Of a stretch of DNA of 64,000 nucleotides, positions 1,838 to 17,579 are shown piece by piece. A program made the translations under genes and the position numbers. Positions within the stretch are counted from its first letter, which is position 1. The number at the start of each line of letters is the position of its first letter. Below the pieces are notes generated by a model. That model had not been told where the DNA came from. It was given only the letters and a program-made list of their open reading frames with translations, and made no database searches. The stretch is from Bacteroidia bacterium (GTDB taxonomy: Bacteria > Bacteroidota > Bacteroidia > Bacteroidales > VadinHA17). The stretch spans positions 10,694-74,693 of the forward strand of contig JBGOZX010000002.1 in assembly GCA_041480425.1 (NCBI GenBank), written 5' to 3'.

Positions 1838-2057
1838 TAAACAAAAATTTTTTCTTTTTAAGATGCCGGTGTATGGTTTCGTGCATCTTAAGGCAATCAA
1901 TATACGCTAATTTTTTTTTCCAACCGTATGAATATGTAATTTTTACAGAAATATTTCATTTAAATCAGTTGGTAGTTATAACTACTTATGCCAATTAAGT
2001 ATTAAGGCGTATTCTCTTTCCTGTCAGAGTTTTATTTGCATAATAATCCATTATTGT

Positions 2058-2065
2058 TACTTTTG
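2058..2065 (+). promoter_or_regulatory. Candidate Bacteroidota -7 promoter box TACTTTTG (TAnnTTTG)
   Basis: Exact match to TAnnTTTG, 31 nt upstream of the ATG at 2096. It lies inside the ORF-track N-terminal extension, which argues for the downstream start. Confidence 0.4.
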
Positions 2066-2095
2066 CCTACTGTTAACACTCCTGATCTTTATTGC

Positions 2096-3211
2096 ATGGA
2101 CCTGACACGAAGTATTCGAGATAAAATGATGGAAGAACGCCTTATGTTTGTTTACAGAGGCGAAATAACAGATAAGAATTCTGTATCTCTGCTTACCCTG
2201 CTTGAAAAAGAGATGAAAAGCGCAGAATACAGTTTTGTTGGCAGGAAAAGGCTTTTCATGTTTGCTCTTGAAAACCTGCAAAATGTTACAAGACATGGAG
2301 ACCACTATCATCATGCTGATATGTCGCTTGTTGTTTACTCAAAAACAGATGACGGCTATACGATAACTACCGGAAATACTATTGCTGCACCGCATATTAA
2401 TGATTTGAAAATCAGACTGGATCGAATTAATAAGCTTGACATAAAAGAGATCAAAACCTATTACAGGGAAATCCTGAGCAGCGCCGAATTCAGCAATAAG
2501 GGTGGCGCAGGACTAGGATTGATTGAAATGGCAAATAAGACCGGCAACAAGCTCGATTATGATTTTGTACCTCTCGATAAAGACTACTCATATTTTATCT
2601 TGAGCAAAACAGTCGATTCCGAGGGAATTGGAGTACATTCAGGAGGGAAGGAAAAGCCTTTTAACAGTAAGGCTGTTACTCATCTCGAACATCTTATGGC
2701 GGAAAATAAAGTGTATCTGACCTGGTCGGGACATATCTGCCCGGATGTGGGTGAAGAGGTTTTATCGTTCACGGAAACAAAACTTACTGAAGAAGATATT
2801 GAGGCAAATTTACGGCGACGAGTCTTCAGCATTCTGGTTGAAATTCTTGAGAATGTAGCAAAATACAGTCCGGGACGTGAACCAGAGGAGAAATACGGCA
2901 TGTCTGTTGCAATAATCAGGTTGGAAGATGACGTTTTTGTATTGACAACCGGGAACCTGATTCTTAGTTCCCGGATCAATGACCTTAAGGAAAAACTCGA
3001 TACAATTAACAAGTTTGACGAGGCCGGACTTAAGAAATTGTTCATTAAATCCCTTTCGAAGCAGACTGTCGAAACCGACAGTACAGGAAATATGGGACTC
3101 ATTGATATAGCACGCAAATCGGGCAGTAAACTGAGGTATCAGTTTGAACAGGTAAATGAACTGTATTCATATTATATGCTTACAGTTAAGGTTGAGAAGC
3201 AATCTGATTAA
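2096..3211 (+). CDS. Tandem SiaB/SpoIIAB-like GHKL (histidine-kinase-like ATPase) protein with two homologous modules
   Basis: Module 1 has an N-box-like ENLQNVTRHG and the G2 box GGAGLGLIEMANKTGNKLDYDF. Module 2 has EILENVAKYS and TGNMGLIDIARKSGSKLRYQFE. The internal duplication is obvious: ITTGNTIAAPHINDLKIRLDRINKLD versus LTTGNLILSSRINDLKEKLDTINKFD. Confidence 0.6.
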   Translation: MDLTRSIRDKMMEERLMFVYRGEITDKNSVSLLTLLEKEMKSAEYSFVGRKRLFMFALENLQNVTRHGDHYHHADMSLVVYSKTDDGYTITTGNTIAAPHINDLKIRLDRINKLDIKEIKTYYREILSSAEFSNKGGAGLGLIEMANKTGNKLDYDFVPLDKDYSYFILSKTVDSEGIGVHSGGKEKPFNSKAVTHLEHLMAENKVYLTWSGHICPDVGEEVLSFTETKLTEEDIEANLRRRVFSILVEILENVAKYSPGREPEEKYGMSVAIIRLEDDVFVLTTGNLILSSRINDLKEKLDTINKFDEAGLKKLFIKSLSKQTVETDSTGNMGLIDIARKSGSKLRYQFEQVNELYSYYMLTVKVEKQSD

Positions 3212-3962: not shown

Positions 3963-5123
3963 CTAGTTGTTAAACAGCTGATCAAGTTTTATCTGCAGTG
4001 ATTTACCGTGTAAATTTGATGCAATTATTGTACCGTTTCGGTCAAACAGGTAGTTGGTTGGTAGTGTCTTAACATTAAAAAGCATTGCATTTTTAGGATC
4101 AAGAGGATTGTCCTCCCTGGTGCTTATCCAGGGCAATTCATCAAACTTCACCTCTGCTTTCCAGTCAGCTTCATTTTCATCAAGATTGATCTGATAAATT
4201 TCAAATCCCTTCCTATTGTAGATTTTGTAAAACTCCTTAAGCTGAAGATTTTCTGCAATACATTCTTTTGATGAAACTGACCAGAACGTCAGAAGGACGA
4301 TTTTACCTCTGAGTGAGGAGAATGCAACCCTTTTTCCGGTAATATCCTTCAGATCAGGATTAAGTTTTGTTTCAGGAAATGTGCCTGCCATATTCTGGAG
4401 TTGCCTTGAATAGATCTGATCGAGCTCTTTTTTAACATCCTGTACGAGTGCCTGAACATGTTTCGAATTTGGGAAATAGTGGATAAGAGAATCTGAAGCG
4501 ATCTTAAGATACTGGAGATCACGGGGATCATAAAGGACATAGGTCTTTTCATCAATCTTCTGATAGAGTGCTTTTATTGAAGCCATCGAGTTCATATGAG
4601 TAATTATGAATTCAATGTTTTTCTTCCTGAGGTCCTTTATAAGATTATTGAATTCAGCCTCAAGTATTGGACCTCTTTCTTCAAATCCGGGCTCTTTGGA
4701 AGCGTTATTATATACTGTACTTAAAGAATCCAGTTTTCTTTTTGTTTCTGCAAGCCGTAGGTCAAGCATACGGATCTGCTCAGATCCTTTTGATCCGGTT
4801 ACTGTATAGTTCTGGAAAAGGTTCGTACCATTAAATTCAAGGTTTAATTTCTCTCCGGGGTCAGCCAGAATAGTGATAAAATCTGAATTAGAATAACCGA
4901 TTTGATAGAAATCAGGATTATTGGCTTTAACTTTAAACCGGAATCCCCCCTTCTTACTGATTTTGGAAGAATCAATTAAAACCGGAGTGTCTACATTAAC
5001 CCTTTTCAGATAAATATAATTCTTTTTCCCCCCATTTATAACTCCATTAACAGTGAATGTGTTTTTGTTACTGCACCCGGTGATGATCATAAAGAGAAGC
5101 AGAAAAATCAGAAATCTTTTCAT
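3963..5123 (-). CDS. TlpA/ResA-like thioredoxin-fold lipoprotein (DUF4369-type N-domain) with a degenerate SKEC active site
   Basis: Lipobox LLFMIITGCS. The C-terminal thioredoxin fold aligns with the neighbouring paralog, but FWSVSSKEC replaces FWASWCVPC. Confidence 0.75.
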   Translation of the reverse strand: MKRFLIFLLLFMIITGCSNKNTFTVNGVINGGKKNYIYLKRVNVDTPVLIDSSKISKKGGFRFKVKANNPDFYQIGYSNSDFITILADPGEKLNLEFNGTNLFQNYTVTGSKGSEQIRMLDLRLAETKRKLDSLSTVYNNASKEPGFEERGPILEAEFNNLIKDLRKKNIEFIITHMNSMASIKALYQKIDEKTYVLYDPRDLQYLKIASDSLIHYFPNSKHVQALVQDVKKELDQIYSRQLQNMAGTFPETKLNPDLKDITGKRVAFSSLRGKIVLLTFWSVSSKECIAENLQLKEFYKIYNRKGFEIYQINLDENEADWKAEVKFDELPWISTREDNPLDPKNAMLFNVKTLPTNYLFDRNGTIIASNLHGKSLQIKLDQLFNN

Positions 5124-5163: not shown

Positions 5164-6327
5164 TTATTTAAACAATTCGCCGAGCTTTCCCTGTAAAGCC
5201 TCTCCTCTGAGGTTTGTAGCAATTACCCGGCCTTCCTTATCCAGGAGGAAATTATACGGGATTGATTCTATTTTGTACAGAGTAACCACAACCGAATTCC
5301 AGTATTGAACATCGCTTACATGTATCCATTTTTCAAGATGATCATCCTGGATTCCTTTTATCCAGGCTTCTTTTGTTTTATCAAGCGATACCTGGTAAAT
5401 CTGGAAGCCTTTGTTGTGGTACATATTATAGGCTTTCACAAGGTTAGGATTCTCCTGCCTGCATGGAACACACCACGATGCCCAGAAATCAAGCAATACC
5501 ACTGAACCTCTCGTTGAAGAAAGTTTAATTGTTTCACCTTCCGGTGAAGGCAGCGAAATTTCAGGAGCTTCCATCTTTTCGACTGGGTCGGTTGATGCAG
5601 TCGTTTGATCTTTATAACGGACAACTAATTCCTGTACTTGATCATGTAGGGAAATAACAGGCTCATATTCAGGATATTGACTAAACATTGAAGAGTCAAC
5701 CTTTACAAAGTAACTTAAATCCTTACTTGGATCCAGGACATAAACATTTGGAGCAACCTGCTGATATAGAGCTACAAGGCTTACCAATGATTTAATATTG
5801 TCATCAATATATCTTTTCGTATAACTATTTATTTCATTCAGATGACCCTGAGCCAGCTTGTCGAGTGAATCGATCACTACAGGCAAATCCGGACTTCCTA
5901 GATTCTGCGTATAAATATTATTGAGCCCCGTCAGGCTGTTAATGGTTTTTCTCAGGGTTTTGTTGTATTCAGCCATTAACTTTGTCCCATTTGATCCTAA
6001 GACCACTACCGGATAATTCAGTGAATCGTGATGAGATGTGAATTTTATTTTCTCTCCAGGTTCAAGGAGCATCGTAAGAAAGTTATTTTCATTAATTTTG
6101 AGAAGGTAAAAAGAAGGATATTTGACCTCTCTTTTAAAGTCAAAACTTCCATCATCAGAAATTATGGTAGAATCGACAGTAAGAAGCTTATTAGATTTCA
6201 GTTCATCGAGAAAAATGTATTCTCCTGCGACAGGATATTCAAGGATGCCGGATATTTCTACAGAGTTTTTCCTGCATCCGGCGAATACTGTTGCAGCAAA
6301 TAAAAATAAAACAAGTTTATTGTTCAT
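5164..6327 (-). CDS. TlpA family thiol:disulfide oxidoreductase lipoprotein
   Basis: Lipobox FAGC. Canonical [17 protein letters not shown] CxxC motif (5461-5472) and the same architecture as 3963-5123. Confidence 0.8.
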
Positions 6328-6555: not shown

Positions 6556-8505
6556 ATGAGTTACATTAAGTTTGAAAAAAGTCAGGTAGTCAATCTTGAA
6601 TACTCACTGTCAAGGGAGATCATCAGGACGAACAGGGCCGGCTCGTACTCTTCAACAACAATTGTAGGATGCAACACCCGCAAGTACCACGGGTTGCTTG
6701 TTTGTCCGGTAGATGAGTTCGGAGGCGAGAGATATGTACTTCTTTCATCTCTCGATGTTACTGTGGTTAATAACGACAGGAGTTTCAATACAGGTATCAG
6801 AAAGTATAAGGGGGATTATTTTAGTCCTAAGGGTCATAAATATATTGAGGATTTTGAGGTTGAAAATATTCCGTTAAGAATATACAGGGTGGGTGAAGTA
6901 ATCTTTAAACAGGAAAGGTTATTGGTACATTATGAAGAGCAATATCTTGTAAGGTTTACAATTCTTGAGGCGTCTGAACCCATGAAGCTTCAGATCCGTC
7001 CATTCCTTGCTTTCAGAAGCATTCATCAACTTACACGCGCTAACCATTTTGCCAATACCAAGGTTGACTTCATTGAAAATGGCATAAAATCCAAATTATA
7101 TGAAGGATTCCCTTCACTGAATATGCAGTTTTCTACCAAAGCAGAATTTGTTCATAATCCCGACTGGTATATTGGGGTCGAATATCCCGAGGAACAGAAA
7201 AGAGGATATGACTATTCAGAGGATCTTTTTTCACCAGGTTTTTTTGAAGTTAATGCTAAAGAAGGAGATGTAATAGTGTTTTCTGCTTCGACCCGAGAGG
7301 AAAAGCCATCTGGACTGAAGACTAAATTTACCAAGACTGTTGGAGGTAAAATACCACGTAACTCTTTTATCAATTGTCTGAGAAATGCAGCTCAGCAGTT
7401 TTTCGAAAAACGTCATGGCATGACACTGGTCATTGCAGGTTATCCCTGGTTTGGTTCCTGGGGAAGAGATACCTTTATTGCCCTTCCCGGGCTTGCCATG
7501 GCAAAGAATAAGTTATCCCTTTACAAGGAAGTGCTTGATACCCAGATAAGTAGGATGAAAGACGGATTATTCCCCAATATGGGTGGTACAGATAACCCGG
7601 CATTTAATTCTGTTGATGCTCCTCTGTGGTTTTTCTGGTCTGTCCAACAATACCTCGAAAACGGAGGTTCCGATGCCTGGGAACGATATGGGGAGGCTTT
7701 AAAATCAGTCCTCGAGGCTTACAGGAATGGGACAGCATTTGGTATCCACATGAGGGAAAACGGACTTATTTATGCCGGTGCCCCCGGGAAATCCCTTACC
7801 TGGATGGATGCTGTTGTTTTCGGGGAACCTGTTACCCAGAGGAAAGGTTATGCAGTTGAAATCAATGCCCTCTGGTATAACGCTGTTTGTTTCTCTCTTG
7901 AGATGGCAAGGCAGGTAAATGATAAGAAGTTTATCAGAGAATATGAAAAATTACCTGAACTGATAAAGGAATCGTTCAATGAGATATTTTGTGATCCAGG
8001 ACGTGGGTATCTGGCTGATTATGTAAATGATGAGGAAGGAAAGAATTATTTTGTAAGGCCCAATATGGTTATTGCTGTATCACTTCCATACTCCATGCTT
8101 GATAAGGAGCAAATGAAAAAAGTTCTGGATGTTGCAGATAAAGAGCTCGTTACGCCAAGGGGATTAAGAACGCTTTCCCCGGGGAACAAGTTTTATAAGG
8201 GTACCTATAAGGGCAACCAGGCGGAGCGCGACAAAGCTTATCATAATGGTACTGTATGGCCTTGGCTTTTAGGCCCGTTCTGCGAAGGCTGGCTAAAAGT
8301 TTATGGTAAACAGGGAGTTAATAAAGTCAAGAAGCTTATTTATGGCCTCGAAGAGGTGATGAGTGAACATGGAGTAAGCACCATATCTGAAATCTATGAC
8401 GGAGATCCGCCACATGCACCTAACGGTGCAATATCTCAGGCATGGAGCGTTGGAGAGGTGCTTAGGATAATTGATCTGCTTGAAAATAAGTATGCTAATC
8501 TATAA
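6556..8505 (+). CDS. Glycogen debranching enzyme family protein (amylo-alpha-1,6-glucosidase type)
   Basis: 649 aa. GDE N-terminal region (NRAGSYSSTTIVGCNTRKYHGLL) and a C-terminal (alpha/alpha)6 block (GYPWFGSWGRDTFIAL ... AYHNGTVWPWLLGPF ... ISEIYDGD). Confidence 0.85.
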   Translation: MSYIKFEKSQVVNLEYSLSREIIRTNRAGSYSSTTIVGCNTRKYHGLLVCPVDEFGGERYVLLSSLDVTVVNNDRSFNTGIRKYKGDYFSPKGHKYIEDFEVENIPLRIYRVGEVIFKQERLLVHYEEQYLVRFTILEASEPMKLQIRPFLAFRSIHQLTRANHFANTKVDFIENGIKSKLYEGFPSLNMQFSTKAEFVHNPDWYIGVEYPEEQKRGYDYSEDLFSPGFFEVNAKEGDVIVFSASTREEKPSGLKTKFTKTVGGKIPRNSFINCLRNAAQQFFEKRHGMTLVIAGYPWFGSWGRDTFIALPGLAMAKNKLSLYKEVLDTQISRMKDGLFPNMGGTDNPAFNSVDAPLWFFWSVQQYLENGGSDAWERYGEALKSVLEAYRNGTAFGIHMRENGLIYAGAPGKSLTWMDAVVFGEPVTQRKGYAVEINALWYNAVCFSLEMARQVNDKKFIREYEKLPELIKESFNEIFCDPGRGYLADYVNDEEGKNYFVRPNMVIAVSLPYSMLDKEQMKKVLDVADKELVTPRGLRTLSPGNKFYKGTYKGNQAERDKAYHNGTVWPWLLGPFCEGWLKVYGKQGVNKVKKLIYGLEEVMSEHGVSTISEIYDGDPPHAPNGAISQAWSVGEVLRIIDLLENKYANL

Positions 8506-8517
8506 TTCAGGTATGAT

Positions 8518-9816
8518 ATGCGTGTGCTAATGTTTGGATGGGAATTTCCGCCCCATATCTCAGGCGGACTAGGAACAGCCAGTTATGGATTGACAAAAGG
8601 TATGTCAACACTGGATGATCTGGAAGTTATTTTCGTTGTGCCAAAGGCCTGGGGAGATGAAGACCAGTCAAAGGTAAGATTGATCGGAGCAAACCAGACA
8701 CCAGTTGCATTCAAACAGGTTTACTACAAAGGATTCCGGCGTCCGCTTGAAAAGATTGAAATTTACTCCAAAATTGTACCATATACCGATCCTGAGGATT
8801 TCTGGTACCGGGTAAATTCAGAGGTCTCAGGATATAATCTTTTTGTACAGACGGATAATAAGGGAATGGTAGAATTTTCAGGGAGATACGACGGTTCACT
8901 GATGGATGAGATTTACAAATACTCAGTTGTTGCTTCTGTTATTGCCGAGGAAAATGAGTTTGACATAATTCATGCGCACGACTGGCTTGCATACCCGGCC
9001 GGTATCGCTGCAATGGAAGTGTCAGGCAAACCGCTTGTAATACATGTCCATGCTACTGATTTTGACCGGAGTGGCGGGAATGTAAATCCGGATGTTTACC
9101 GGATCGAAAAAAACGGAATGGATGCGGCCTCAAAAATTATCACGGTTAGTAACCTCACAAGAGATATTGTAATAAATAAATATCAGATCCATCCTGATAA
9201 AGTTGAAACCGTTTATAATGCAGTTGAACCTGTAAAAATCTCCGTAGAAGCTGAATTGGAAAAAGGTTTTGATGAAAAGGTTGTCACCTTTCTTGGCAGA
9301 ATCACTCTGCAGAAGGGTCCTGAATATTTCATTGAAGCTGCATACAAAGTACTGAAGGTAATGCCCAATGTAAGATTTGTGATGGCCGGCTCGGGCGATA
9401 TGATGGAAAGAATGATGAGAAGAGCCGCCGCACTAAAAATTACCGATCGCTTTCATTTTACCGGATTTCTGAAAGGTAAAGATGTTTTTACTTTGCTGAG
9501 TTTAAGTGATGTGTACATTATGCCCTCAGTCTCAGAGCCATTTGGAATTTCTCCTCTCGAAGCTATGCAATCAAATGTTCCTGTAATTATAAGCAAACAA
9601 TCGGGAGTCTCCGAAATCCTTACTCATGCAGTAAAAACCGACTTCTGGGATATTGATGCAATGGCGGATGCAATTTACGGCATTCTTAATTATCCTGCCC
9701 TGGCACAAATGTTTATAAAGAATGGGAAAGAAGAAGTTGTCAGGCTCAAATGGGACAATTCAGCAAGGCATGTAAGAGATATTTATTACAGAGTGATTTG
9801 GCAACATAAGAACTAA
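8518..9816 (+). CDS. GT4-family glycosyltransferase (glycogen-cluster associated)
   Basis: N-terminal FPPHISGGLGTA and the C-terminal GT-B motif MPSVSEPFGISPLEAM (E-x7-E). It starts 12 bp after the debranching gene. Confidence 0.8.
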   Translation: MRVLMFGWEFPPHISGGLGTASYGLTKGMSTLDDLEVIFVVPKAWGDEDQSKVRLIGANQTPVAFKQVYYKGFRRPLEKIEIYSKIVPYTDPEDFWYRVNSEVSGYNLFVQTDNKGMVEFSGRYDGSLMDEIYKYSVVASVIAEENEFDIIHAHDWLAYPAGIAAMEVSGKPLVIHVHATDFDRSGGNVNPDVYRIEKNGMDAASKIITVSNLTRDIVINKYQIHPDKVETVYNAVEPVKISVEAELEKGFDEKVVTFLGRITLQKGPEYFIEAAYKVLKVMPNVRFVMAGSGDMMERMMRRAAALKITDRFHFTGFLKGKDVFTLLSLSDVYIMPSVSEPFGISPLEAMQSNVPVIISKQSGVSEILTHAVKTDFWDIDAMADAIYGILNYPALAQMFIKNGKEEVVRLKWDNSARHVRDIYYRVIWQHKN

Positions 9817-9819
9817 AAT

Positions 9820-11298
9820 ATGAGTGCAGTAAACAAAAAAGCAATATGCTTTTATTTTCAGGTTCACCAGCCTTTCCGGCTAAAACGATACAGGTTCTTT
9901 GACCTGGGGCATGATCACTATTATTATGATGATTTCACCAACGAATCAATCATGAGAAAGGTGGCAGAGAAATGTTATATACCTGCCAATGATATTATTC
10001 TGGACCTTATTCTGAGAAATAAAGGAAAATTTAAAGTCACTTTTTCTCTTTCAGGGCTGGTAATAAGCCAGTTCCGGCTTTATGCTCCTGAAGTGCTTGA
10101 ATCATTCAGAAAACTTGCAGATACAGGCATGGTGGAATTTCTTGCAGAAACCGGATCACATTCTCTGGCATCTATTAAGAAGAGGAGTGAATTCGAACGC
10201 CAGGTAACTGCCCACAAAGAGATGGTAAAAGAGTTCCTGGGGGTCGAACCTACATCTTTCAGGAACACCGAACTGATCTACTCTGACCAGATAGGTTCAT
10301 GGGTGGCTGAAATGGGATTTAAGTCGATGCTTACTGAGGGAGCCAAACATGTCCTTGGATGGAAAAGTCCTAACTATTTGTACTGTAACTCTTTAAATCC
10401 ACGGCTTAAAATACTTCTGAGGAATTTTGTTCTGAGTGATGATATTGCTTTCAGATTCTCAAACAGGGGCTGGAACGAATGGCCATTAACCTCGGATAAA
10501 TATTCAGCCTGGCTTAATAAACTTGCACCTAAAAGCGAACTTATTAATGTCTTTCTGGATTATGAAACCTTTGGGGAACACAACTGGAAGGAGACAGGAA
10601 TATTTGACTTCCTTTCTCATTTACCAGGATCAATTCTTAAAAAGACCCCTTACAGGTTTATGACTCCTACCGAGATTGCAGACACATTACAGCCTGTTTC
10701 AGCGATTAGCGTCCCTTCTCCCATCTCATGGGCAGATGAAGAACGTGATATAACCGCATGGCATGGAAACGAATTGCAGGTAGCTGCACTTGATAAGCTG
10801 TATGATCTGACAGATAAAGTTGGCAGGTGTGATGACGGCCAGATAAAAAAAGACTGGGAGTATCTTCAATCGAGCGACCATTTTTACTATATGGCAACCA
10901 AGTTCTTTTCGGATGGTGCTGTGCATGCCTATTTTAATCCTTACGAAACACCTTATGATGCATTTATGAATTATATGAACGTTCTAAGCGATTTTGAGAT
11001 CAGACTTAACAGATTCATCCCTGATATCACCGAGTATAATGAGATAAATAAACTTAATTCACTGATAAGAGAGAAAGAACAGATAATTGATCAGCAATCT
11101 GCCGAAATTGAGAAAATGAAGAAAAAAACCGGAAGAGTAAAAACTGTGACAAGATCTGTTCTAAAGAAAGAACGGATACTTGCCGGAAAGACTTTATTGA
11201 AGAGGAAACCGGCCAGATCAGCTGAAATAAAAACAAAGACCGTTAAAAAGGAACCACCTGCAAATCCCTTTTCGACAGGGAAAGGGAGGAGAAAATAA
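9820..11298 (+). CDS. Glycoside hydrolase family 57 protein (alpha-amylase/branching type) with a coiled-coil plus basic C-terminal tail
   Basis: GH57-like N-terminus (ICFYFQVHQPFRLKRY, LDYETFGEH). The last ~90 aa are coiled-coil-like and then K/R-rich. Confidence 0.75.
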   Translation: MSAVNKKAICFYFQVHQPFRLKRYRFFDLGHDHYYYDDFTNESIMRKVAEKCYIPANDIILDLILRNKGKFKVTFSLSGLVISQFRLYAPEVLESFRKLADTGMVEFLAETGSHSLASIKKRSEFERQVTAHKEMVKEFLGVEPTSFRNTELIYSDQIGSWVAEMGFKSMLTEGAKHVLGWKSPNYLYCNSLNPRLKILLRNFVLSDDIAFRFSNRGWNEWPLTSDKYSAWLNKLAPKSELINVFLDYETFGEHNWKETGIFDFLSHLPGSILKKTPYRFMTPTEIADTLQPVSAISVPSPISWADEERDITAWHGNELQVAALDKLYDLTDKVGRCDDGQIKKDWEYLQSSDHFYYMATKFFSDGAVHAYFNPYETPYDAFMNYMNVLSDFEIRLNRFIPDITEYNEINKLNSLIREKEQIIDQQSAEIEKMKKKTGRVKTVTRSVLKKERILAGKTLLKRKPARSAEIKTKTVKKEPPANPFSTGKGRRK

Positions 11299-11331: not shown

Positions 11332-14300
11332 ATGAATGTTGAACTGATTTTTGAGACCAGTTGGGAGGTTTGTAACAAGGTTGGAGGAATTCACACTGTA
11401 ATCTCGACTAAAGCACTAAATATTGTCAATGAACTCGGAGATAATTATATATTAATAGGACCCGATGTATGGAGGGAGGAGATAACAAATCCGGAATTTA
11501 TTCGTGACGAATCACTTTTCGTTGATTGGAAAACCCTTGCTGCCAAGGATGGATTAAGAGTGAAAACCGGAAGATGGAACATTGCCGGGAAACCAATTGT
11601 AATCCTGATTGATTTTACTCCCTATTTCGGTCAACAGAATGAGATATTCGCCGGATTCTGGGAAACCTACAAGCTCGACAGCATTTCGGGTCAGTGGGAT
11701 TATGTTGAGCCGGCTCTTTTCGGATACGCTGCCGGAAAGATTATTGAAAGTTTTACCTCATTCCACCGCCAACACCATAATATCATAGCTCAATTCCATG
11801 AGTGGATGACAGGGACCGGCATTCTCTATCTTGAAAAATTTGCACCATGGATTGCCACTGCTTTTACAACCCATGCCACTGTTCTTGGCCGGTGTATTGC
11901 AGGCAATAACAGACTATTGTATAGTAAAATGGAGGAATACATTCCGACCCAGGTTGCCCGTGAGTTTAATGTTGTGGCAAAACTATCTCTTGAAAAGATA
12001 TCAGCAGCAGTCGCGGATGTTTTTACAACCGTCAGTGAAATCACTTCCAGGGAATGTTCATTGTTTCTTGGTAAAGATGTTGATATTGTGACACCCAACG
12101 GTTTTGAAGACTCATTTGTGCCTGGTAAAGAGGTATTTGAGGAAAGAAGGATGCTTGCCCGGTCGAAACTTAAAAAAGTAGCGGAAGCGGTGCTTGGTTA
12201 TCCATTGTCAGAAGAGTGTGTTTTTGTAGCAAACAGCGGAAGATATGAATTCAGGAACAAGGGAGTCGATATTTTTATTGACTCTCTTGGGGAGATGAAT
12301 AAGAAGGATCAGATGGCAAAAGAATGTGTCGCCTTTATCCTTATGCCGGCATATAATAAAGGACCCCGCCAGGATCTGGTTGATTTCCTTTATAACAATA
12401 GACCTATCAATGGCATAGACAGGTACCTTACCCATAGTCTGCATTACCCTTTAACCGATCCTGTTTTACAAAGAATAAACGACAATAACCTTACAAATGA
12501 TCCAAAGGCAAAAGTAAAGATCATTTTTGTGCCTTCTTATCTGAATGGCAATGACGGCATTTTCAATATGTCTTACTTCGACCTTCTCATTGGTTTTGAT
12601 CTATCAGTGTTCCCTTCGTATTATGAACCGTGGGGATATACTCCACTGGAAAGTCTGATGTTCTCTATTCCAACAGTGACGACATCACTTTCAGGATTTG
12701 GACTCTGGGTTAAAAACTATTTTAAGGATCCCGGTAACGGTATAGCGATTATTGAGAGAACCGATGATAATGCACAAAAGGTAGTAGCTGATATCCGGGA
12801 TTTCATTAAAAAATTTATCGGACTCACAGGTGATGAGGTGAAAGAAGCAAGAGAAAAAGCTCATGCTGTGTCGAGGATTGCAATGTGGGACAGTCTTGTA
12901 AAATATTATTTTGATGCATACGAAATCGCTCTTACCCATAGCAGTGAAAGGAGGGAAGAGCCCAGGGAGTTTGCAAAGTTTGTAGAGGCACCCGGGTTAC
13001 AGGTCCGTAAACCACACCAGATACCTGTATGGAAAGATATTTATGTTCAGAGCGATGTGCCTGATAAACTGTCATCTTTGAAGGAGCTTTCTAACAACCT
13101 GTGGTGGTCGTGGAATTCGGAAGCCGAATTATTATTCAAAAGTATGGATCCGTCGTTGTGGGAGGAGGTCCGTCATAATCCAAAACTGCTGCTCGAAAAG
13201 ATTGATTATAAAAGACTCCTGGTTCTGGAAGACGATGATGAGTTTGTTGCAGATCTGGAAAGTATTTACACATTTTTCAGAGCACATATCGATCGCCCCG
13301 ATAACAAAGATATACCCTCAATAGCTTATTTCAGTATGGAGTTTGGCATCCACCCTTGCCTGAAACTATATTCCGGGGGTTTGGGCGTTCTGGCTGGTGA
13401 CTATCTGAAAGAAGCCAGCGATTCAAACTTTAAAATTATCGGAGTCGGACTCCTTTACAGATTTGGCTATTTCAGGCAGAAACTGGGACCTAAAGGAGAA
13501 CAACTTACAATTTATGAAGCGGAAGAATTCTCCCATCTCCCGATAAATCCTGTTAAAGATGCTGAAGGAAAGCATCTTACAGTAAGTATCGGTTGGCCGG
13601 GAAGAAGTATAAAGATACGGGTTTGGGAAGCAAAAGTGGGAAAAGTCTCATTGTTGTTGCTTGATACTGATTTTGACGACAATACCCAGGAAGACCGTAC
13701 CGTGACACATTATTTATACGGTGGAGATCATGAAAACAGGCTGAGACAGGAGTTGCTCCTTGGAATAGGCGGAATAAGAGCCTTAGATTCAATGGGGATA
13801 AAACCCGATATCTACCATAATAATGAGGGCCATTCAGCCTTCATAGGCCTTGAACGGCTCAGGACCCTGATGACCAATAACCATCTTACATTTAATGAGG
13901 CGCTTGAGGCTGTCAGATCTTCCACTCTGTTTACAACACATACACCAGTGCCTGCAGGACACGATGCCTTTGAGGAAGACTTGTTGCGTAAATACATTTC
14001 TCATTATCATAGCCGTCTTTCTATAACATGGGATGAGCTAATGGCTTTGGGTCGCTGTGAGGGTGAAGCCGATAAAAAGTTTAATATGAGTTACCTGGCA
14101 ACACGTATGTCGCAGGAATTAAATGGTGTCAGCAAGCTTCACGGTGAGGTTACTCAGAGTATGTTTAATAAGTTATGGCCTGGGTATCTGAAAGAAGAAC
14201 TTTACATCGGGTATGTCACAAACGGGGTTCATCATCCCACCTGGGTTGCACCAGAATGGAAAGAAGTATATAAAGAATTAACAGGAAGCCCCAGTTTTGA

Positions 14301-15555
14301 TCAGACCGACAGAAGCTTGTGGGAAAAGATATATAGGGTCGATGACAAAAAGATTTATGAGATAAAAACCAGTCTTAAAAGGAATCTGTTTACCTATATC
14401 AGAAAGACCCTGCAGTCCGACATGATGGAAAGACATGTCAGTCCGCGTACTCTACTGAACATAAGCAGTCATCTTGATGAGAAAGCTCTTACAATAGGAT
14501 TTGCCCGGAGGTTTGCTACATATAAACGGGCATCTCTGTTATTCAGGGACCTTGACAGGCTGGCAAAAATTGTAAATGATCCGGAAAAACCTGTGCAGTT
14601 CATTTATGCAGGAAAAGCACACCCAAACGACGGAGGTGGCCAGGACCTGATCAAAAGGGTATTTGAAGTATCACAAATGCCCCAGTTTGCAGGTAAAGTT
14701 ATATTCCTTGAGAATTATGATATTGATCTGGCAAAATCCCTTGTGAGAGGAGTTGATATCTGGCTTAATACACCAACTAGGCCCCTTGAAGCATCAGGCA
14801 CGAGCGGAGAAAAAGCTGTAATGAACGGTACAATTCATTTTAGTGTTCTCGACGGCTGGTGGGTTGAGGGATATCACGCATTTGCTGGTTGGGCTTTGCC
14901 GAAAAAAAGAACATTTTCAAATCAGGACCTTCAGGATGATATTGATGCAGAGACAATTTATAATATGCTTGAGTATGAAATAGTTCCGGCATATTATTCA
15001 TTTAATGAACAAGGAGTTCCGGTTGAATGGATAAGTCATGTTAAAAATACCATGGTAAAAATTGCTCCCGAATTCACTACGAAGAGAATGCAAGATGATT
15101 ATTATGAGAAATATTATTCCAGGCTTTGGACCAGAAATAAATATCTCACCGAGAATGGTTTTGAAAAAGCAAAAGAATTGGCTGCGTGGAAGAAAACAAT
15201 AAAAGAGGAATGGGATAATATTGAAGTTCTCAACTACAACTTAGAACAATCCGGTGAAAATGTTTACCATTCAGGCCATGATTACCACGCGGAAATAGCT
15301 CTTAGCGTTAAAAAGATACCAAAGGAGAATGTTGGTGTTGAGTTTATCATTACCCGTTTGAACAAACAGGGGCAATATGAGTTCGTTGACAGCCAGGAAT
15401 TCAAGCTGGTAAGCTGCAAAAGCGGTAAGTGTCTGTACAGAGCTAATCTAATACCGGAAAAAGCAGGTACCTTCTTTTACGGGATCCGTATTTATCCAAA
15501 ACACAAAGATCTTCCTCACAAACAGGATTTCTACCTGCTTCGGTGGATTGATTAA
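11332..15555 (+). CDS. Fusion protein: GT3 (eukaryote-type) glycogen synthase plus GT35 alpha-glucan phosphorylase
   Basis: The N-terminus MNVELIFETSWEVCNKVGGIHTVISTKA is the GT3 glycogen-synthase signature. The WWSWNSEAE block is DUF3417-like. The phosphorylase core contains EASGTSGEKAVMNG, with the PLP-lysine codon at 14812-14814. The reading frame is uninterrupted for 1407 aa. Confidence 0.85.
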   Translation: MNVELIFETSWEVCNKVGGIHTVISTKALNIVNELGDNYILIGPDVWREEITNPEFIRDESLFVDWKTLAAKDGLRVKTGRWNIAGKPIVILIDFTPYFGQQNEIFAGFWETYKLDSISGQWDYVEPALFGYAAGKIIESFTSFHRQHHNIIAQFHEWMTGTGILYLEKFAPWIATAFTTHATVLGRCIAGNNRLLYSKMEEYIPTQVAREFNVVAKLSLEKISAAVADVFTTVSEITSRECSLFLGKDVDIVTPNGFEDSFVPGKEVFEERRMLARSKLKKVAEAVLGYPLSEECVFVANSGRYEFRNKGVDIFIDSLGEMNKKDQMAKECVAFILMPAYNKGPRQDLVDFLYNNRPINGIDRYLTHSLHYPLTDPVLQRINDNNLTNDPKAKVKIIFVPSYLNGNDGIFNMSYFDLLIGFDLSVFPSYYEPWGYTPLESLMFSIPTVTTSLSGFGLWVKNYFKDPGNGIAIIERTDDNAQKVVADIRDFIKKFIGLTGDEVKEAREKAHAVSRIAMWDSLVKYYFDAYEIALTHSSERREEPREFAKFVEAPGLQVRKPHQIPVWKDIYVQSDVPDKLSSLKELSNNLWWSWNSEAELLFKSMDPSLWEEVRHNPKLLLEKIDYKRLLVLEDDDEFVADLESIYTFFRAHIDRPDNKDIPSIAYFSMEFGIHPCLKLYSGGLGVLAGDYLKEASDSNFKIIGVGLLYRFGYFRQKLGPKGEQLTIYEAEEFSHLPINPVKDAEGKHLTVSIGWPGRSIKIRVWEAKVGKVSLLLLDTDFDDNTQEDRTVTHYLYGGDHENRLRQELLLGIGGIRALDSMGIKPDIYHNNEGHSAFIGLERLRTLMTNNHLTFNEALEAVRSSTLFTTHTPVPAGHDAFEEDLLRKYISHYHSRLSITWDELMALGRCEGEADKKFNMSYLATRMSQELNGVSKLHGEVTQSMFNKLWPGYLKEELYIGYVTNGVHHPTWVAPEWKEVYKELTGSPSFDQTDRSLWEKIYRVDDKKIYEIKTSLKRNLFTYIRKTLQSDMMERHVSPRTLLNISSHLDEKALTIGFARRFATYKRASLLFRDLDRLAKIVNDPEKPVQFIYAGKAHPNDGGGQDLIKRVFEVSQMPQFAGKVIFLENYDIDLAKSLVRGVDIWLNTPTRPLEASGTSGEKAVMNGTIHFSVLDGWWVEGYHAFAGWALPKKRTFSNQDLQDDIDAETIYNMLEYEIVPAYYSFNEQGVPVEWISHVKNTMVKIAPEFTTKRMQDDYYEKYYSRLWTRNKYLTENGFEKAKELAAWKKTIKEEWDNIEVLNYNLEQSGENVYHSGHDYHAEIALSVKKIPKENVGVEFIITRLNKQGQYEFVDSQEFKLVSCKSGKCLYRANLIPEKAGTFFYGIRIYPKHKDLPHKQDFYLLRWID

Positions 15556-17579
15556 ATTTCAGTTGCCTTTCTTACAGCTTCCTTCTTAAAAACAAGAGCT
15601 GTTCTCGACGGCAGATAAAGATAGAGGTAGAAAGGTACATTTATAATGTGCCTTTCTGCTTTTTTGATTGACAAATAAGATGGATTTCTATCAATCCTGT
15701 TAAATCCTCCGAAATCCGGATCATCTGTGTCGAGTACTATCCTGAACTTCCCTTTTACAGGAATTCCATAATCAGTAAATGAGGCAGTTGGATGAAAATT
15801 GAAGACGAACAAAAATTCTCCTCTCATGAAGGCAATTACCTTGTCATTGTTATTCTCATAAATCCTGCTCACAAAGAGATCATCGAGCAGACGGAAATTC
15901 TGGTGGAGCTTAGTCATCTTTCTGTCAAATTCTGCCAGGTAATAGTATTTAAGATCCTTATTTTTAGCCAGATGCCATTGCCGGCGTGCATATTTATAGC
16001 TCCAGTTATTTCCTTCACGTGGGAAATCGATCCATTCAGGATGACCAAATTCATTTCCCATAAAATTCAGATAGCCTCCTCCTGAAGTGCTGAACGTGAG
16101 AAGCCTTATCATTTTATGCAAAGCAATTCCACGGTCAATGGTAAAACTATGATAGGCTTTTGTCATTCCAGTATACATTTCAGCATCTATCATTCTGAAT
16201 ATTAATGTTTTATCGCCAACTAGCGCCTGGTCATGCGATTCACAGTATGAGATAATCTTCTCCTCGGGACGATGTTGGGTAAGTTCATGTATCAGATGCC
16301 CCATATCCCAGTTTTCATCAAAAGTCTCTTTTACAAGCTTTATCCAGAAATCAGGTACCCCCATTGAGAGTCTGTAGTCAAAGCCATAGCCATATCTGGC
16401 TGTATCGGCAGCAAGCCCGGGCATACCACTCATCTCCTCAGCGATTGTTAATGCACCAGGTTTAAAGGTGTGTATCATTTTATTGGCAAGAAAGAGATAG
16501 ATCAAAGCATCTTCGTCCTGTCCGCCATCGAAATACTCTTCATAAGATGTAAAATTCTTTTCCAGGCCATGGTTATAATAGATCATGCTTGTTATACCAT
16601 CGAACCTGAAACCGTCAAATTTATACTCTTCAAGCCAGTATCGGCAATTCGACAGCATGAAGTGGATCACCTTATCTTTTCCGTAATCGAAACATAATGA
16701 ATCCCATGCAATATGATTTCTTCTGTTATTTGTGTGAAAATACTGTCCGGGTGTCCCGTCAAACAGACCAAGTCCCTCATTGACATTTTTAACGGAGTGA
16801 GAGTGAATAAGATCCATAATAATCCTTATTCCTGAAGCATGGGCTTTATCTATCAATGCTTTAAGATCTTCAGGTGTACCGAATCTTGAAGATGCTGCAA
16901 AAAAGCTGGATACATGATAGCCGAACGATCCATAGAAAGGATGCTCCTGGATGGCCATCAATTGTATAGTGTTGTATCCTGCTTTGATGATAAGCGGAAG
17001 AACATTTTCAGTGAATTCCCGATAAGTGCCAAGCTTTTCTTCCGCAGTTGCCATCCCTATATGGGCTTCATAAATAACCGGAGCAGTATCCGGTGCCCTG
17101 AAATCCTCTAACTGCCATTTATAATGATCCTCCGGGTACCACACCTGGGTACTGAATATCTTTGTTTTGTCATCCTGGACCACCCGGGTCGCATAAGATG
17201 GGATGCGTTCCCCTTTGCCGCCCTCCCAGTTAATTGAAAGTTTATATAGATCTCCATGATTCAGGGACCCTTTCGGAAGCTTTATTTCCCAGTCCCCATA
17301 AACGTTAATCCTTTGCATCTGGTATTCAGGTTTCTCTTTCCATCCAGTAAATACTCCGATGATAAAAATACTTTTTGCATTTGGTGCCCATTCTCTGAAG
17401 ATCCATCCATCGCTGCTCCGATGAAGGCCATAATAGTGATGCCCCATTGCAAATTCGCAGAGAGTACTTTTCCTTGTGAGATTATGCTCTTTTGCAAGGC
17501 ATTTATTAATACGGTTTTCAATAACACCCTTAAATGGCTCCAGCCATGGATCGGATAAATAGAATCTAACTGGGTTCAT
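15552..17579 (-). CDS. glgB: 1,4-alpha-glucan branching enzyme (GH13, eukaryote-like subfamily)
   Basis: GH13 catalytic blocks DLIHSH, GFRFDGITSM, IAEEMSG, CESHDQ, and an N-terminal CBM48-like region. Confidence 0.85.
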   Translation of the reverse strand: MNPVRFYLSDPWLEPFKGVIENRINKCLAKEHNLTRKSTLCEFAMGHHYYGLHRSSDGWIFREWAPNAKSIFIIGVFTGWKEKPEYQMQRINVYGDWEIKLPKGSLNHGDLYKLSINWEGGKGERIPSYATRVVQDDKTKIFSTQVWYPEDHYKWQLEDFRAPDTAPVIYEAHIGMATAEEKLGTYREFTENVLPLIIKAGYNTIQLMAIQEHPFYGSFGYHVSSFFAASSRFGTPEDLKALIDKAHASGIRIIMDLIHSHSVKNVNEGLGLFDGTPGQYFHTNNRRNHIAWDSLCFDYGKDKVIHFMLSNCRYWLEEYKFDGFRFDGITSMIYYNHGLEKNFTSYEEYFDGGQDEDALIYLFLANKMIHTFKPGALTIAEEMSGMPGLAADTARYGYGFDYRLSMGVPDFWIKLVKETFDENWDMGHLIHELTQHRPEEKIISYCESHDQALVGDKTLIFRMIDAEMYTGMTKAYHSFTIDRGIALHKMIRLLTFSTSGGGYLNFMGNEFGHPEWIDFPREGNNWSYKYARRQWHLAKNKDLKYYYLAEFDRKMTKLHQNFRLLDDLFVSRIYENNNDKVIAFMRGEFLFVFNFHPTASFTDYGIPVKGKFRIVLDTDDPDFGGFNRIDRNPSYLSIKKAERHIINVPFYLYLYLPSRTALVFKKEAVRKATEI

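Follow-up and report, generated by a model that had tools for sequence, protein, structure and literature searches.

Glycogen synthesis and phosphorolysis are textbook opposing reactions that are normally under separate control. In one gene of the 64,000-nucleotide stretch of a Bacteroidia bacterium contig analysed here (JBGOZX010000002.1; hereafter the window), and in hundreds of other bacterial species, the two are welded into one protein, and its synthase carries none of the eukaryotic control elements. Both sites running at once would make a UTP-consuming cycle, which raises the question of whether such a futile cycle is avoided, or used deliberately. Energy spilling is on record for Fibrobacter succinogenes from the rumen, together with glycogen cycling, and for Prevotella bryantii, and the cryo-EM study of the stand-alone Segatella copri phosphorylase ScGP (PMC12912991) supplies a structural frame for the question.

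The whole fused gene occupies positions 11332..15555 (+ strand) and, according to the ORF listing and its translation, consists of 1407 codons plus stop, with an ATG start and zero internal stops. A GT3 glycogen synthase forms the N-terminal and a GT35 alpha-glucan phosphorylase the C-terminal part of the polypeptide, in one frame. The original prediction had read these two families, their order and the single frame from the DNA letters, and all of this is borne out by HMM matches (Pfam Glycogen_syn 1.2e-99, DUF3417 2.2e-31, Phosphorylase 2.1e-31) and by alignments to human GYS1 and to PDB 9L6I_A, while translation placed the motifs at the positions it had quoted. The stoichiometric co-expression that it deduced follows as well, because both halves share the single frame; the segment joining them contains no Met, and the next one, M604, already lies within the DUF3417 domain. 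The dN/dS ratio is about 0.03-0.07 in the GT3 half, the phosphorylase core and the tether, with dS near saturation and the C-terminal domain not estimable, so that these three parts appear to be under purifying selection.

The synthase module (residues 1 to ~541, 11332..12954, +) matches PF05693 with 335.1 bits (cut-off 27) in two stretches that correspond to the N- and C-terminal Rossmann halves, and it is modelled by AlphaFold at a pLDDT of ~90. Residues 28-372 and 443-616 of human GYS1 align to it (E 2.7e-77), and eukaryotic GT3 enzymes (human GYS1, PDB 7Q0B/8CVX; yeast Gsy2, 3NAZ) belong to the same fold family at E ~1e-77, sharing the motifs KVGG, FHEW, TTHAT, GRYEFxNKG and E-X7-E. Residue-by-residue alignment to GYS1 found the catalytic and nucleotide-sugar motifs KxGG, GRYEFxNKG and E-X7-E all present. 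The first of these (K16-G19, 11377..11388, +, aligned to human NKVGGI) lies within ETSWEVCNKVGGIHTV, residues 8-23 of the fused protein, and the E-X7-E motif (E432...E440, YYEPWGYTPLE, 12625..12651, +) is part of a block identical in human GYS1. Across 30 fused proteins of 34-86% identity, H156, K310 and E440 never vary, 29 of the proteins keep R304 and E432, and N15, V17, G18 and G19 show at least 90% conservation. K16 is Lys in 19 and Met in 7 of the 30; with 11 of them carrying a substitute, most often Met, this lysine is not a universal requirement.

What distinguishes this synthase from its eukaryotic relatives in the GYS1 alignment is the loss of regulatory parts. The arginine cluster through which glucose-6-phosphate and phosphorylation exert control is absent (positions R579, 580, 582, 586, 588 and 591 read G, D, V, R, K and A, with R586 alone kept), as are the phosphorylatable N- and C-terminal tails: the fused protein begins 4 residues before the synthase core, and the tether replaces the C-terminal tail. 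The segment between GYS1 residues 372 and 443, which we take to be the eukaryotic tetramer arm, is reduced to 22 aa from 70. The glucose donor is most probably UDP-glucose, judging by family membership and by analogy to the Bacteroidales bacterium P. bryantii B14, which, as related in the papers that cite Lou et al. 1997 (PMC7935935, PMC4432691), has no glgC and relies on a eukaryote-type synthase that draws on UDP-glucose for its glycogen, control being reported at UDP-glucose pyrophosphorylase. The activities in these accounts are those of cell extracts, and the P. bryantii lineage appears to have split genes, unlike the locus described here. The window ORFs that were scanned include neither glgC nor galU.

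Residues ~565-1407 make up a complete "clade 2" GT35 alpha-glucan phosphorylase, as seen from the TIGR02094 match and the alignment to 9L6I_A (E 5.5e-277). It opens with the helical DUF3417 domain (residues 576-677, 13057..13362, +; PF11897 over the full profile 1-109, aligned to ScGP), which holds the NNLWWSWN block at residues 587-594, and continues into the phosphorylase core (residues 664-1263, 13321..15120, +; TIGR02094 with 839.4 bits, cut-off 191.7, over profile positions 1-599 of 600). The equivalog model of the Thermococcales maltodextrin phosphorylase, NF041129, was also matched (744 bits), below its cut-off of 1500, which makes the protein a relative and not a member of that family. 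The pyridoxal-phosphate lysine, K1161 (codon verified at 14812..14814, +, inside EASGTSGEKAVMNG at 14788-14829), is invariant in all 30 fused proteins and aligns to K609 of ScGP, which carries PLP in the cryo-EM structure (PMC12912991). Together with E832, H870, R1059, R1060, Y1064 and K1065 it belongs to a set of invariant or nearly invariant residues that match the ScGP active site; H870, R1059, R1060 and K1065, the counterparts of ScGP H316, R507, R508 and K513, are all at least 90% conserved. In the PLP motif this protein has GEK, as do 6 of the 30 fused proteins; 21 have GMK.

The likeness to ScGP (clade 2 GT35; PDB 9L6I, 9MA8, 9U3A, 9UTG) runs from end to end of residues 565-1406, with the N-terminal loop, helical domain, phosphorylase core and C-terminal beta-sheet domain all shared, and all active-site and proximal AMP-site residues cited for ScGP match, including the GEK motif. 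One exception concerns the distal AMP site, where R583, needed for decamer formation in ScGP (PMC12912991), corresponds to K1135, a conservative change (14 of the 30 fused proteins have R at this position and 13 have K). ScGP is a stand-alone enzyme of 852 aa, whereas here the N-terminal loop runs upstream into the tether and the 541-aa synthase. The last ~110 aa, left unassigned by the original prediction, turn out to be a known domain: a long helix (residues 1250-1296) precedes a C-terminal beta-sandwich, GlgP_C (residues 1298-1407, 15223..15552, +), identified from AlphaFold (pLDDT 92), from Foldseek, with 9L6I_A as best match (TM 0.82, E 1.7e-11), and from PF28476, precomputed for close relatives of the fused protein. 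This part aligns to the end of ScGP (residues 725-851), whose clade-2 C-terminal beta-sheet domain is described in PMC12912991.

Between the two modules lies a tether (residues 543-572, 12958..13047, +), the sole internal segment with pLDDT <50 in an AlphaFold model of residues 1-1200. The model (pTM 0.58) gives no fixed contact of one half with the other; being a 1200-residue truncation, it could miss an interface formed only in the full-length oligomer. The distance from W519 to W592 is 68-85 residues in the 30 fused proteins (median 74), and the tether is nearly gap-free across 69 orthologues, with a sequence that is not conserved between distant clades. Model and alignments thus describe what appears to be a flexible tether of ~30 residues, constrained in length and free in sequence, and the constrained length hints at some geometric requirement.

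Could the single frame have arisen from a sequencing frameshift or from an assembly join of adjacent genes? This is possible in principle for a metagenome assembly, and in Chitinophaga pollutisoli the halves are indeed called as separate, overlapping, out-of-frame genes; the debranching gene is split there too, however, which points to frameshift errors at that locus. Of 80 species genomes assembled independently of one another, 78 contain a single ORF of ~1410 aa (52-84% identity), and because of this an artefact can be excluded without reads, leaving it a negligible chance. The frame is broken in the other two loci (L029 and L072), but inside the GT3 domain, away from the junction. The fused architecture further recurs in at least 29 full-length clusters (50% identity), the lack of a Met in the tether also speaks against two adjacent genes, and the junction DNA (12900-13100) holds no long homopolymer run. 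The GT3/GT35 bimodular entries that the original prediction mentioned in Bacteroidota do exist, but this range was too narrow: the named fused members include, besides Chitinophaga, Planctomycetota and Acidobacteriota.

All fused representatives are colinear with identical domain order, and protein distances measured in one half correlate with those in the other (r = 0.65, with 0 of 2000 permutations as high): the halves co-evolve and go back to one old fusion. Stand-alone proteins of Bacteroidales nest within the fused clade, with bootstrap values of 100/100 and 95/100 for GT35 and 92/100 for GT3, and the stand-alone enzymes that gut and oral Bacteroidales carry therefore look like fission products of the fused form.

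The fusion is part of a conserved glycogen cluster. Upstream on the same strand lie an archaeal-type amylo-alpha-1,6-glucosidase (GDE_N + GDE_C, 6556..8505, +; Pfam 1e-108 and 1.6e-71, TIGR01561 359.9 bits, slightly under the cut-off of 364), a GT4 glycosyltransferase (8518..9816, +; Glycos_transf_1 5e-35, top PDB match GlgM, 6TVP, E 1e-20) and, 33 nt before the fusion, a GH57 enzyme (9820..11298, +; PF03065 1.4e-73). A GH13 branching enzyme GlgB (CBM48 + alpha-amylase by Pfam, 15552..17579, −; 288 bits with the NCBIfam GlgB models, under the equivalog cut-offs) is convergent. The debranching gene is syntenic in most orthologous loci, and the other three are syntenic as well.

From the domain identities, intact active sites, tether and evolutionary history of the fused protein, we consider it likely that it is a bifunctional glycogen-turnover enzyme, in which two autonomous catalytic modules on a flexible tether operate on the glycogen particle. 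The GT3 module would extend alpha-1,4 chains with glucose at their non-reducing ends, and the PLP-dependent clade-2 phosphorylase module would remove it from the same ends as glucose-1-phosphate. The fusion would fix a 1:1 ratio of both activities and may keep on the particle a bacterial synthase that would be devoid of the eukaryotic targeting and control devices, with the phosphorylase module presumably binding the particle via its oligomer and surface glucan sites. The net direction would be set by metabolites (candidates being UDP-glucose supply, Pi/glucose-1-phosphate and AMP) and not by a rigid domain contact. The reciprocal regulation within the polypeptide that the original prediction thought probable is at best conjectural, given the missing arginine cluster and a model in which the halves do not touch in a fixed way. 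Each module can presumably work alone, given that ScGP is active as a stand-alone enzyme and that stand-alone GT3 and GT35 proteins are nested in the fused clade.

Alternatively, the phosphorylase module might serve synthesis, giving or holding malto-oligosaccharide primers and editing outer chain length by reverse action or trimming. This would suit the primer requirement of eukaryotic GT3 synthases (PMC11046441) in a cluster where no glycogenin gene was seen, and the grouping of the gene with branching and GT4 genes; the debranching enzyme in the same cluster fits degradation instead. Cellular Pi is normally far above glucose-1-phosphate, so that general biochemistry favours phosphorolysis. 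As ScGP also has a low kcat in the synthetic direction, and the stand-alone descendants behave as ordinary phosphorylases (PMC12912991), we regard a role confined to synthesis as unlikely. Still more doubtful is a protein with one non-catalytic half, in which the phosphorylase is reduced to a glycogen anchor for the synthase, or the synthase to a UDP-glucose sensor. Pseudo-enzyme domains are common in fusions, and both the variable KxGG lysine and the minority GEK motif could be read in this sense, but the remaining catalytic residues of either half show little or no variation among fused proteins that share as little as 34% identity, dN/dS is equally low in both, and ScGP with the same GEK motif is active with PLP bound (PMC12912991).

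The turnover enzyme could also be pictured at the level of its assembly. ScGP passes from pentamer to decamer upon AMP binding (PMC12912991), and a similar pentamer ring, formed via the phosphorylase half, might hold five tethered synthases round one glycogen particle, with AMP-driven ring stacking and UDP-glucose supply switching between net synthesis, breakdown and deliberate cycling, and with the stand-alone enzymes of gut Bacteroidales as split remnants; we offer this only tentatively, as a rather improbable elaboration. Other fusions of two enzymes from one glucan pathway, TreS-Mak/Pep2 and MalQ-GlgB, likewise occur in split and fused forms depending on lineage (PMC11046441). They link successive steps that run the same way, whereas this fusion joins opposing reactions at the same chain end.

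The architecture itself is already catalogued, as KEGG K16153 ('glycogen phosphorylase/synthase' [EC 2.4.1.1 2.4.1.11], quoted in PMC8307300) and under the IMG name "glycogen phosphorylase/synthase". The gene described here shows the same two domains in the same order, GT3 then GT35 in one polypeptide, with no structural difference; its assignment to K16153 is based on this architecture and on the IMG name of a 100% identical JGI protein (P0001, 'phosphorylase/glycogen(starch) synthase'), and names of this type are also borne by dozens of proteins at 80-85% identity. The original prediction knew of no biochemical characterisation, and in the literature we likewise found no purification, assay or other biochemical study of any fused protein. 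The NCBI name of the same proteins is 'alpha-glucan family phosphorylase' only, which hides the synthase half. Because these product names give the phosphorylase only, name-based pathway reconstruction can miss the sole glycogen synthase of these genomes.

The gene at 11332..15555 (+) is an uninterrupted ORF with an ATG start encoding 1407 aa, as ORF listing and translation both gave, which upholds the original prediction of a single-frame fusion between a GT3 glycogen synthase and a GT35 alpha-glucan phosphorylase. The three motifs quoted there were all found in place, and the codon of the PLP-lysine indeed lies at 14812-14814. All three domains expected in a Pfam scan are matched: Glycogen_syn (GT3) in the N-terminal part (E 1.2e-99), DUF3417 at residues 576-677, and Phosphorylase at residues 829-1179. 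The NCBIfam model TIGR02094, "alpha-glucan family phosphorylase", is matched over its whole length at residues 664-1263 (839 bits, for a cut-off of 191.7). Among solved structures, the N-terminal half matches the human, yeast, and worm glycogen synthases (∼1e-76), and the stand-alone glycogen phosphorylase of Segatella copri (ScGP, 852 aa, PDB 9L6I; PMC12912991) aligns end to end with residues 564-1406 (E about 1e-276). Pfam, NCBIfam, and solved structures thus all support the structural interpretation, the nearest characterised relatives being the eukaryotic synthases GYS1 (human) and Gsy2 (yeast) for the N-terminal third, and ScGP for the C-terminal two thirds.

The C-terminus had been left as unassigned, but it corresponds to the Pfam domain GlgP_C (PF28476). 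For residues 1244-1407, AlphaFold predicts a long helix leading into a beta-sandwich (pLDDT 92), and this model superposes on 9L6I with a TM of 0.82. Beyond ScGP, a fold search with this domain returned only weak, generic beta-sandwich matches (TM 0.3-0.4; CBM21, Wzt CBD, and the GlgE N-domain). A second AlphaFold model, which used 30 aligned sequences and spans residues 1-1200, and so bears neither on contacts of the last 207 residues nor on oligomers, is confident for both modules (mean pLDDT 88) and falls below a pLDDT of 50 at residues 543-572 only; with a pTM of 0.58, it predicts no orientation of the modules relative to each other. The tether between them is flanked by two tryptophans that are invariant in all 30 fused proteins aligned, 68-85 residues apart (median 74). 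Its sequence is not conserved between clades and has a high content of R, P, A, S, and E, and one stretch of it matches the ScGP "N-terminal loop".

Fused proteins of this kind are widespread. When residues 1-1190 were searched against a library of 50% identity clusters, the 150 top matches comprised at least 29 full-length fused proteins (1394-1448 aa, one colinear match each) with identities as low as 36%, and 31 junction-spanning fragments, the remainder being stand-alone phosphorylases of ∼850 aa and synthases of ∼560 aa. Fused members with a named source are found in the cultured Chitinophaga filiformis (WP_247814908.1), in Planctomycetota metagenome-assembled genomes, and in the acidobacterium Sulfidibacter corallicola. 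Since the pairwise distances of the two halves correlate across the 30 fused proteins (r = 0.65, a value reached by none of 2000 permutations), the data fit a single ancient fusion after which both halves descended together. In neighbour-joining distance trees of representatives, the Porphyromonas-type stand-alone phosphorylases form a group with our protein that leaves out other fused proteins (100/100 bootstraps), and all five stand-alone synthases, one of them from Bacteroidaceae, fall within the same subclade (92/100). Based on this placement, gut and oral Bacteroidales appear to owe their stand-alone enzymes to fission of the fusion. The 855-aa phosphorylase of Chitinophaga pollutisoli was also considered as a clean natural fission within a genus, but its locus (CP149822.1; 4400-8568 and 9066-11038) speaks against this: the ORFs for GT3 and GT35 are out of frame with an overlap of 97 nt, and the debranching gene is split as well, its GDE_N and GDE_C parts being called as two overlapping genes. 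The sequence makes a frameshift error or decay more likely than a natural split in this complete genome.

That the single frame might itself be an artefact is a question that the comparative evidence across genomes settles. When one genome was scanned for each species, at least 591 genomes had a relative. The 80 best loci all come from metagenome-assembled Bacteroidales or Bacteroidia (52-84% identity), and in 78 of them a single ORF of ∼1410 aa holds both modules. The only two without an intact fused ORF, L029 (7974-12224) and L072 (8761-12222), have their frame interrupted within the synthase domain, away from the junction, probably by indel errors, both coming from MFD-labelled assemblies that we take to be long-read. 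The junction DNA of the fusion is also devoid of any long homopolymer run, and the tether contains no methionine, hence no start for a separate phosphorylase. An artefact therefore has a negligible probability.

As for what the protein does, we favour with good confidence a pair of autonomous catalytic modules held together by a flexible tether and working on the same non-reducing chain ends: the synthase module would add glucose to these ends from a nucleotide sugar, and the phosphorylase module would free glucose from them as glucose-1-phosphate. It seems rather unlikely that the protein is a machine for synthesis only, whose phosphorylase would supply or edit primers, and less likely still that one of the halves is non-catalytic. 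Across the 30 fused proteins (34-86% identity), synthase residues H156, R304, K310, E432, and E440, as well as phosphorylase residues E832, H870, R1059, R1060, Y1064, K1065, and K1161, are invariant or altered in at most three; in ScGP, the latter residues make the contacts with PLP, phosphate, glucan, and the proximal AMP (PMC12912991). Synonymous sites are saturated with respect to most orthologues, so that only part of the dN/dS ratios is usable; these are ∼0.03-0.07 for all three regions with an estimate, namely the synthase half, phosphorylase core, and tether.

For the favoured two-module enzyme, the donor is probably UDP-glucose, judging from the family and the likeness to Prevotella bryantii. 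Fusion would likely bring a fixed 1:1 ratio of activities, and co-localise the synthase on the glycogen particle bound by the phosphorylase module. The direction would probably be set by metabolite levels, candidate signals being UDP-glucose supply, the Pi/glucose-1-phosphate ratio, and AMP; UDP-glucose pyrophosphorylase is described as the activated step in P. bryantii in passages citing Lou et al., 1997 (PMC7935935; PMC4432691). Both activities running at once would hydrolyse one UTP per turn. The cell may tolerate such a cycle, or even exploit it, given that the rumen bacterium Fibrobacter succinogenes is known to cycle its glycogen and P. bryantii to spill energy.

On the alignment evidence, the control apparatus of eukaryotic glycogen synthases is missing from the fusion. 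The fusion retains only one of the six arginines by which human GYS1 senses glucose-6-phosphate and phosphorylation and lacks the phosphorylated tails, and the 70 residues at GYS1 positions 373-442 are reduced to 22. In the phosphorylase module, the distal AMP-site R583 of ScGP, required for AMP-induced decamer formation (PMC12912991), is replaced by a lysine, and R or K is found in 27 of the 30 fused proteins. The PLP motif reads GEK (14809-14814, E1160-K1161) in the fusion, in ScGP, and in 6/30 fused proteins, versus GMK in 21/30, a lineage-specific change beside the cofactor lysine. In the synthase module, the KxGG lysine K16 (11377-11379) gives way to Met, Q, L, H, or F in 11/30 fused proteins, with the flanking N, V, G, and G conserved; this variation may reflect a different handling of nucleotide sugars in some clades.

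The GT3-GT35 architecture is already catalogued, and the fusion is real, conserved, and of a known kind. KEGG K16153 is defined as "glycogen phosphorylase/synthase [EC 2.4.1.1 2.4.1.11]" (PMC8307300), and the IMG product names of the identical protein and its relatives correspond to it; the NCBI name for fused proteins is "alpha-glucan family phosphorylase" only. Full-text literature searches retrieved no study purifying, assaying, or imaging a fused member, and the available portion of a 2024 Chem Rev review of prokaryotic alpha-glucan enzymes (PMC11046441) covers other fusions with no mention of GT3-GT35. The ScGP structures now offer a frame against which the biochemistry of such a covalent synthase-phosphorylase pair can be tested.

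The fusion is the last gene of a co-directional set, preceded by an archaeal-type debranching enzyme (6556-8505, +), a GT4 glycosyltransferase (8518-9816, +), and a GH57 gene (9820..11298, +), with gaps of 12, 3, and 33 nt. Bacteroidota promoters deviate from the sigma-70 consensus. A GH13 branching enzyme gene, glgB (15552..17579, -), converges on the 3' end of the fusion, and the two ORFs overlap by 4 nt at their stop codons (15552-15555, gattaaat), leaving no space for a terminator between them. This gene order is kept in orthologous loci, 41 of which have the full arrangement. The debranching enzyme scores just below the cut-off of TIGR01561 (359.9 bits versus 364), and its archaeal type fits the suggestion, made in the same review, that Bacteroidota took GT3-based glycogen genes from archaea (PMC11046441). 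The GT4 gene, which most orthologous loci also place between those of the debranching enzyme and the GH57 enzyme, has as best solved relative the maltose-1-phosphate synthase GlgM (6TVP, E 1e-20), and its top NCBIfam model is glgA_Coryne (133 bits, under the cut-off of 302). It could encode a primer maker, or a GlgM-like enzyme consuming the glucose-1-phosphate released next door. No GlgE was in view, nor was a nucleotide-sugar pyrophosphorylase detected among the window ORFs scanned. The remaining genes of the window are ordinary chromosomal housekeeping genes. Upstream of the glycogen cluster lie two tandem paralogues with DUF4369 and a thioredoxin-like (AhpC/TSA) domain (3963-5123 and 5164-6327, both -), a pair syntenic with the cluster in more than 40 orthologous loci, and a 391-aa protein with two DUF6272 stretches is encoded at 2036-3211 (+) (E 1.3e-63).
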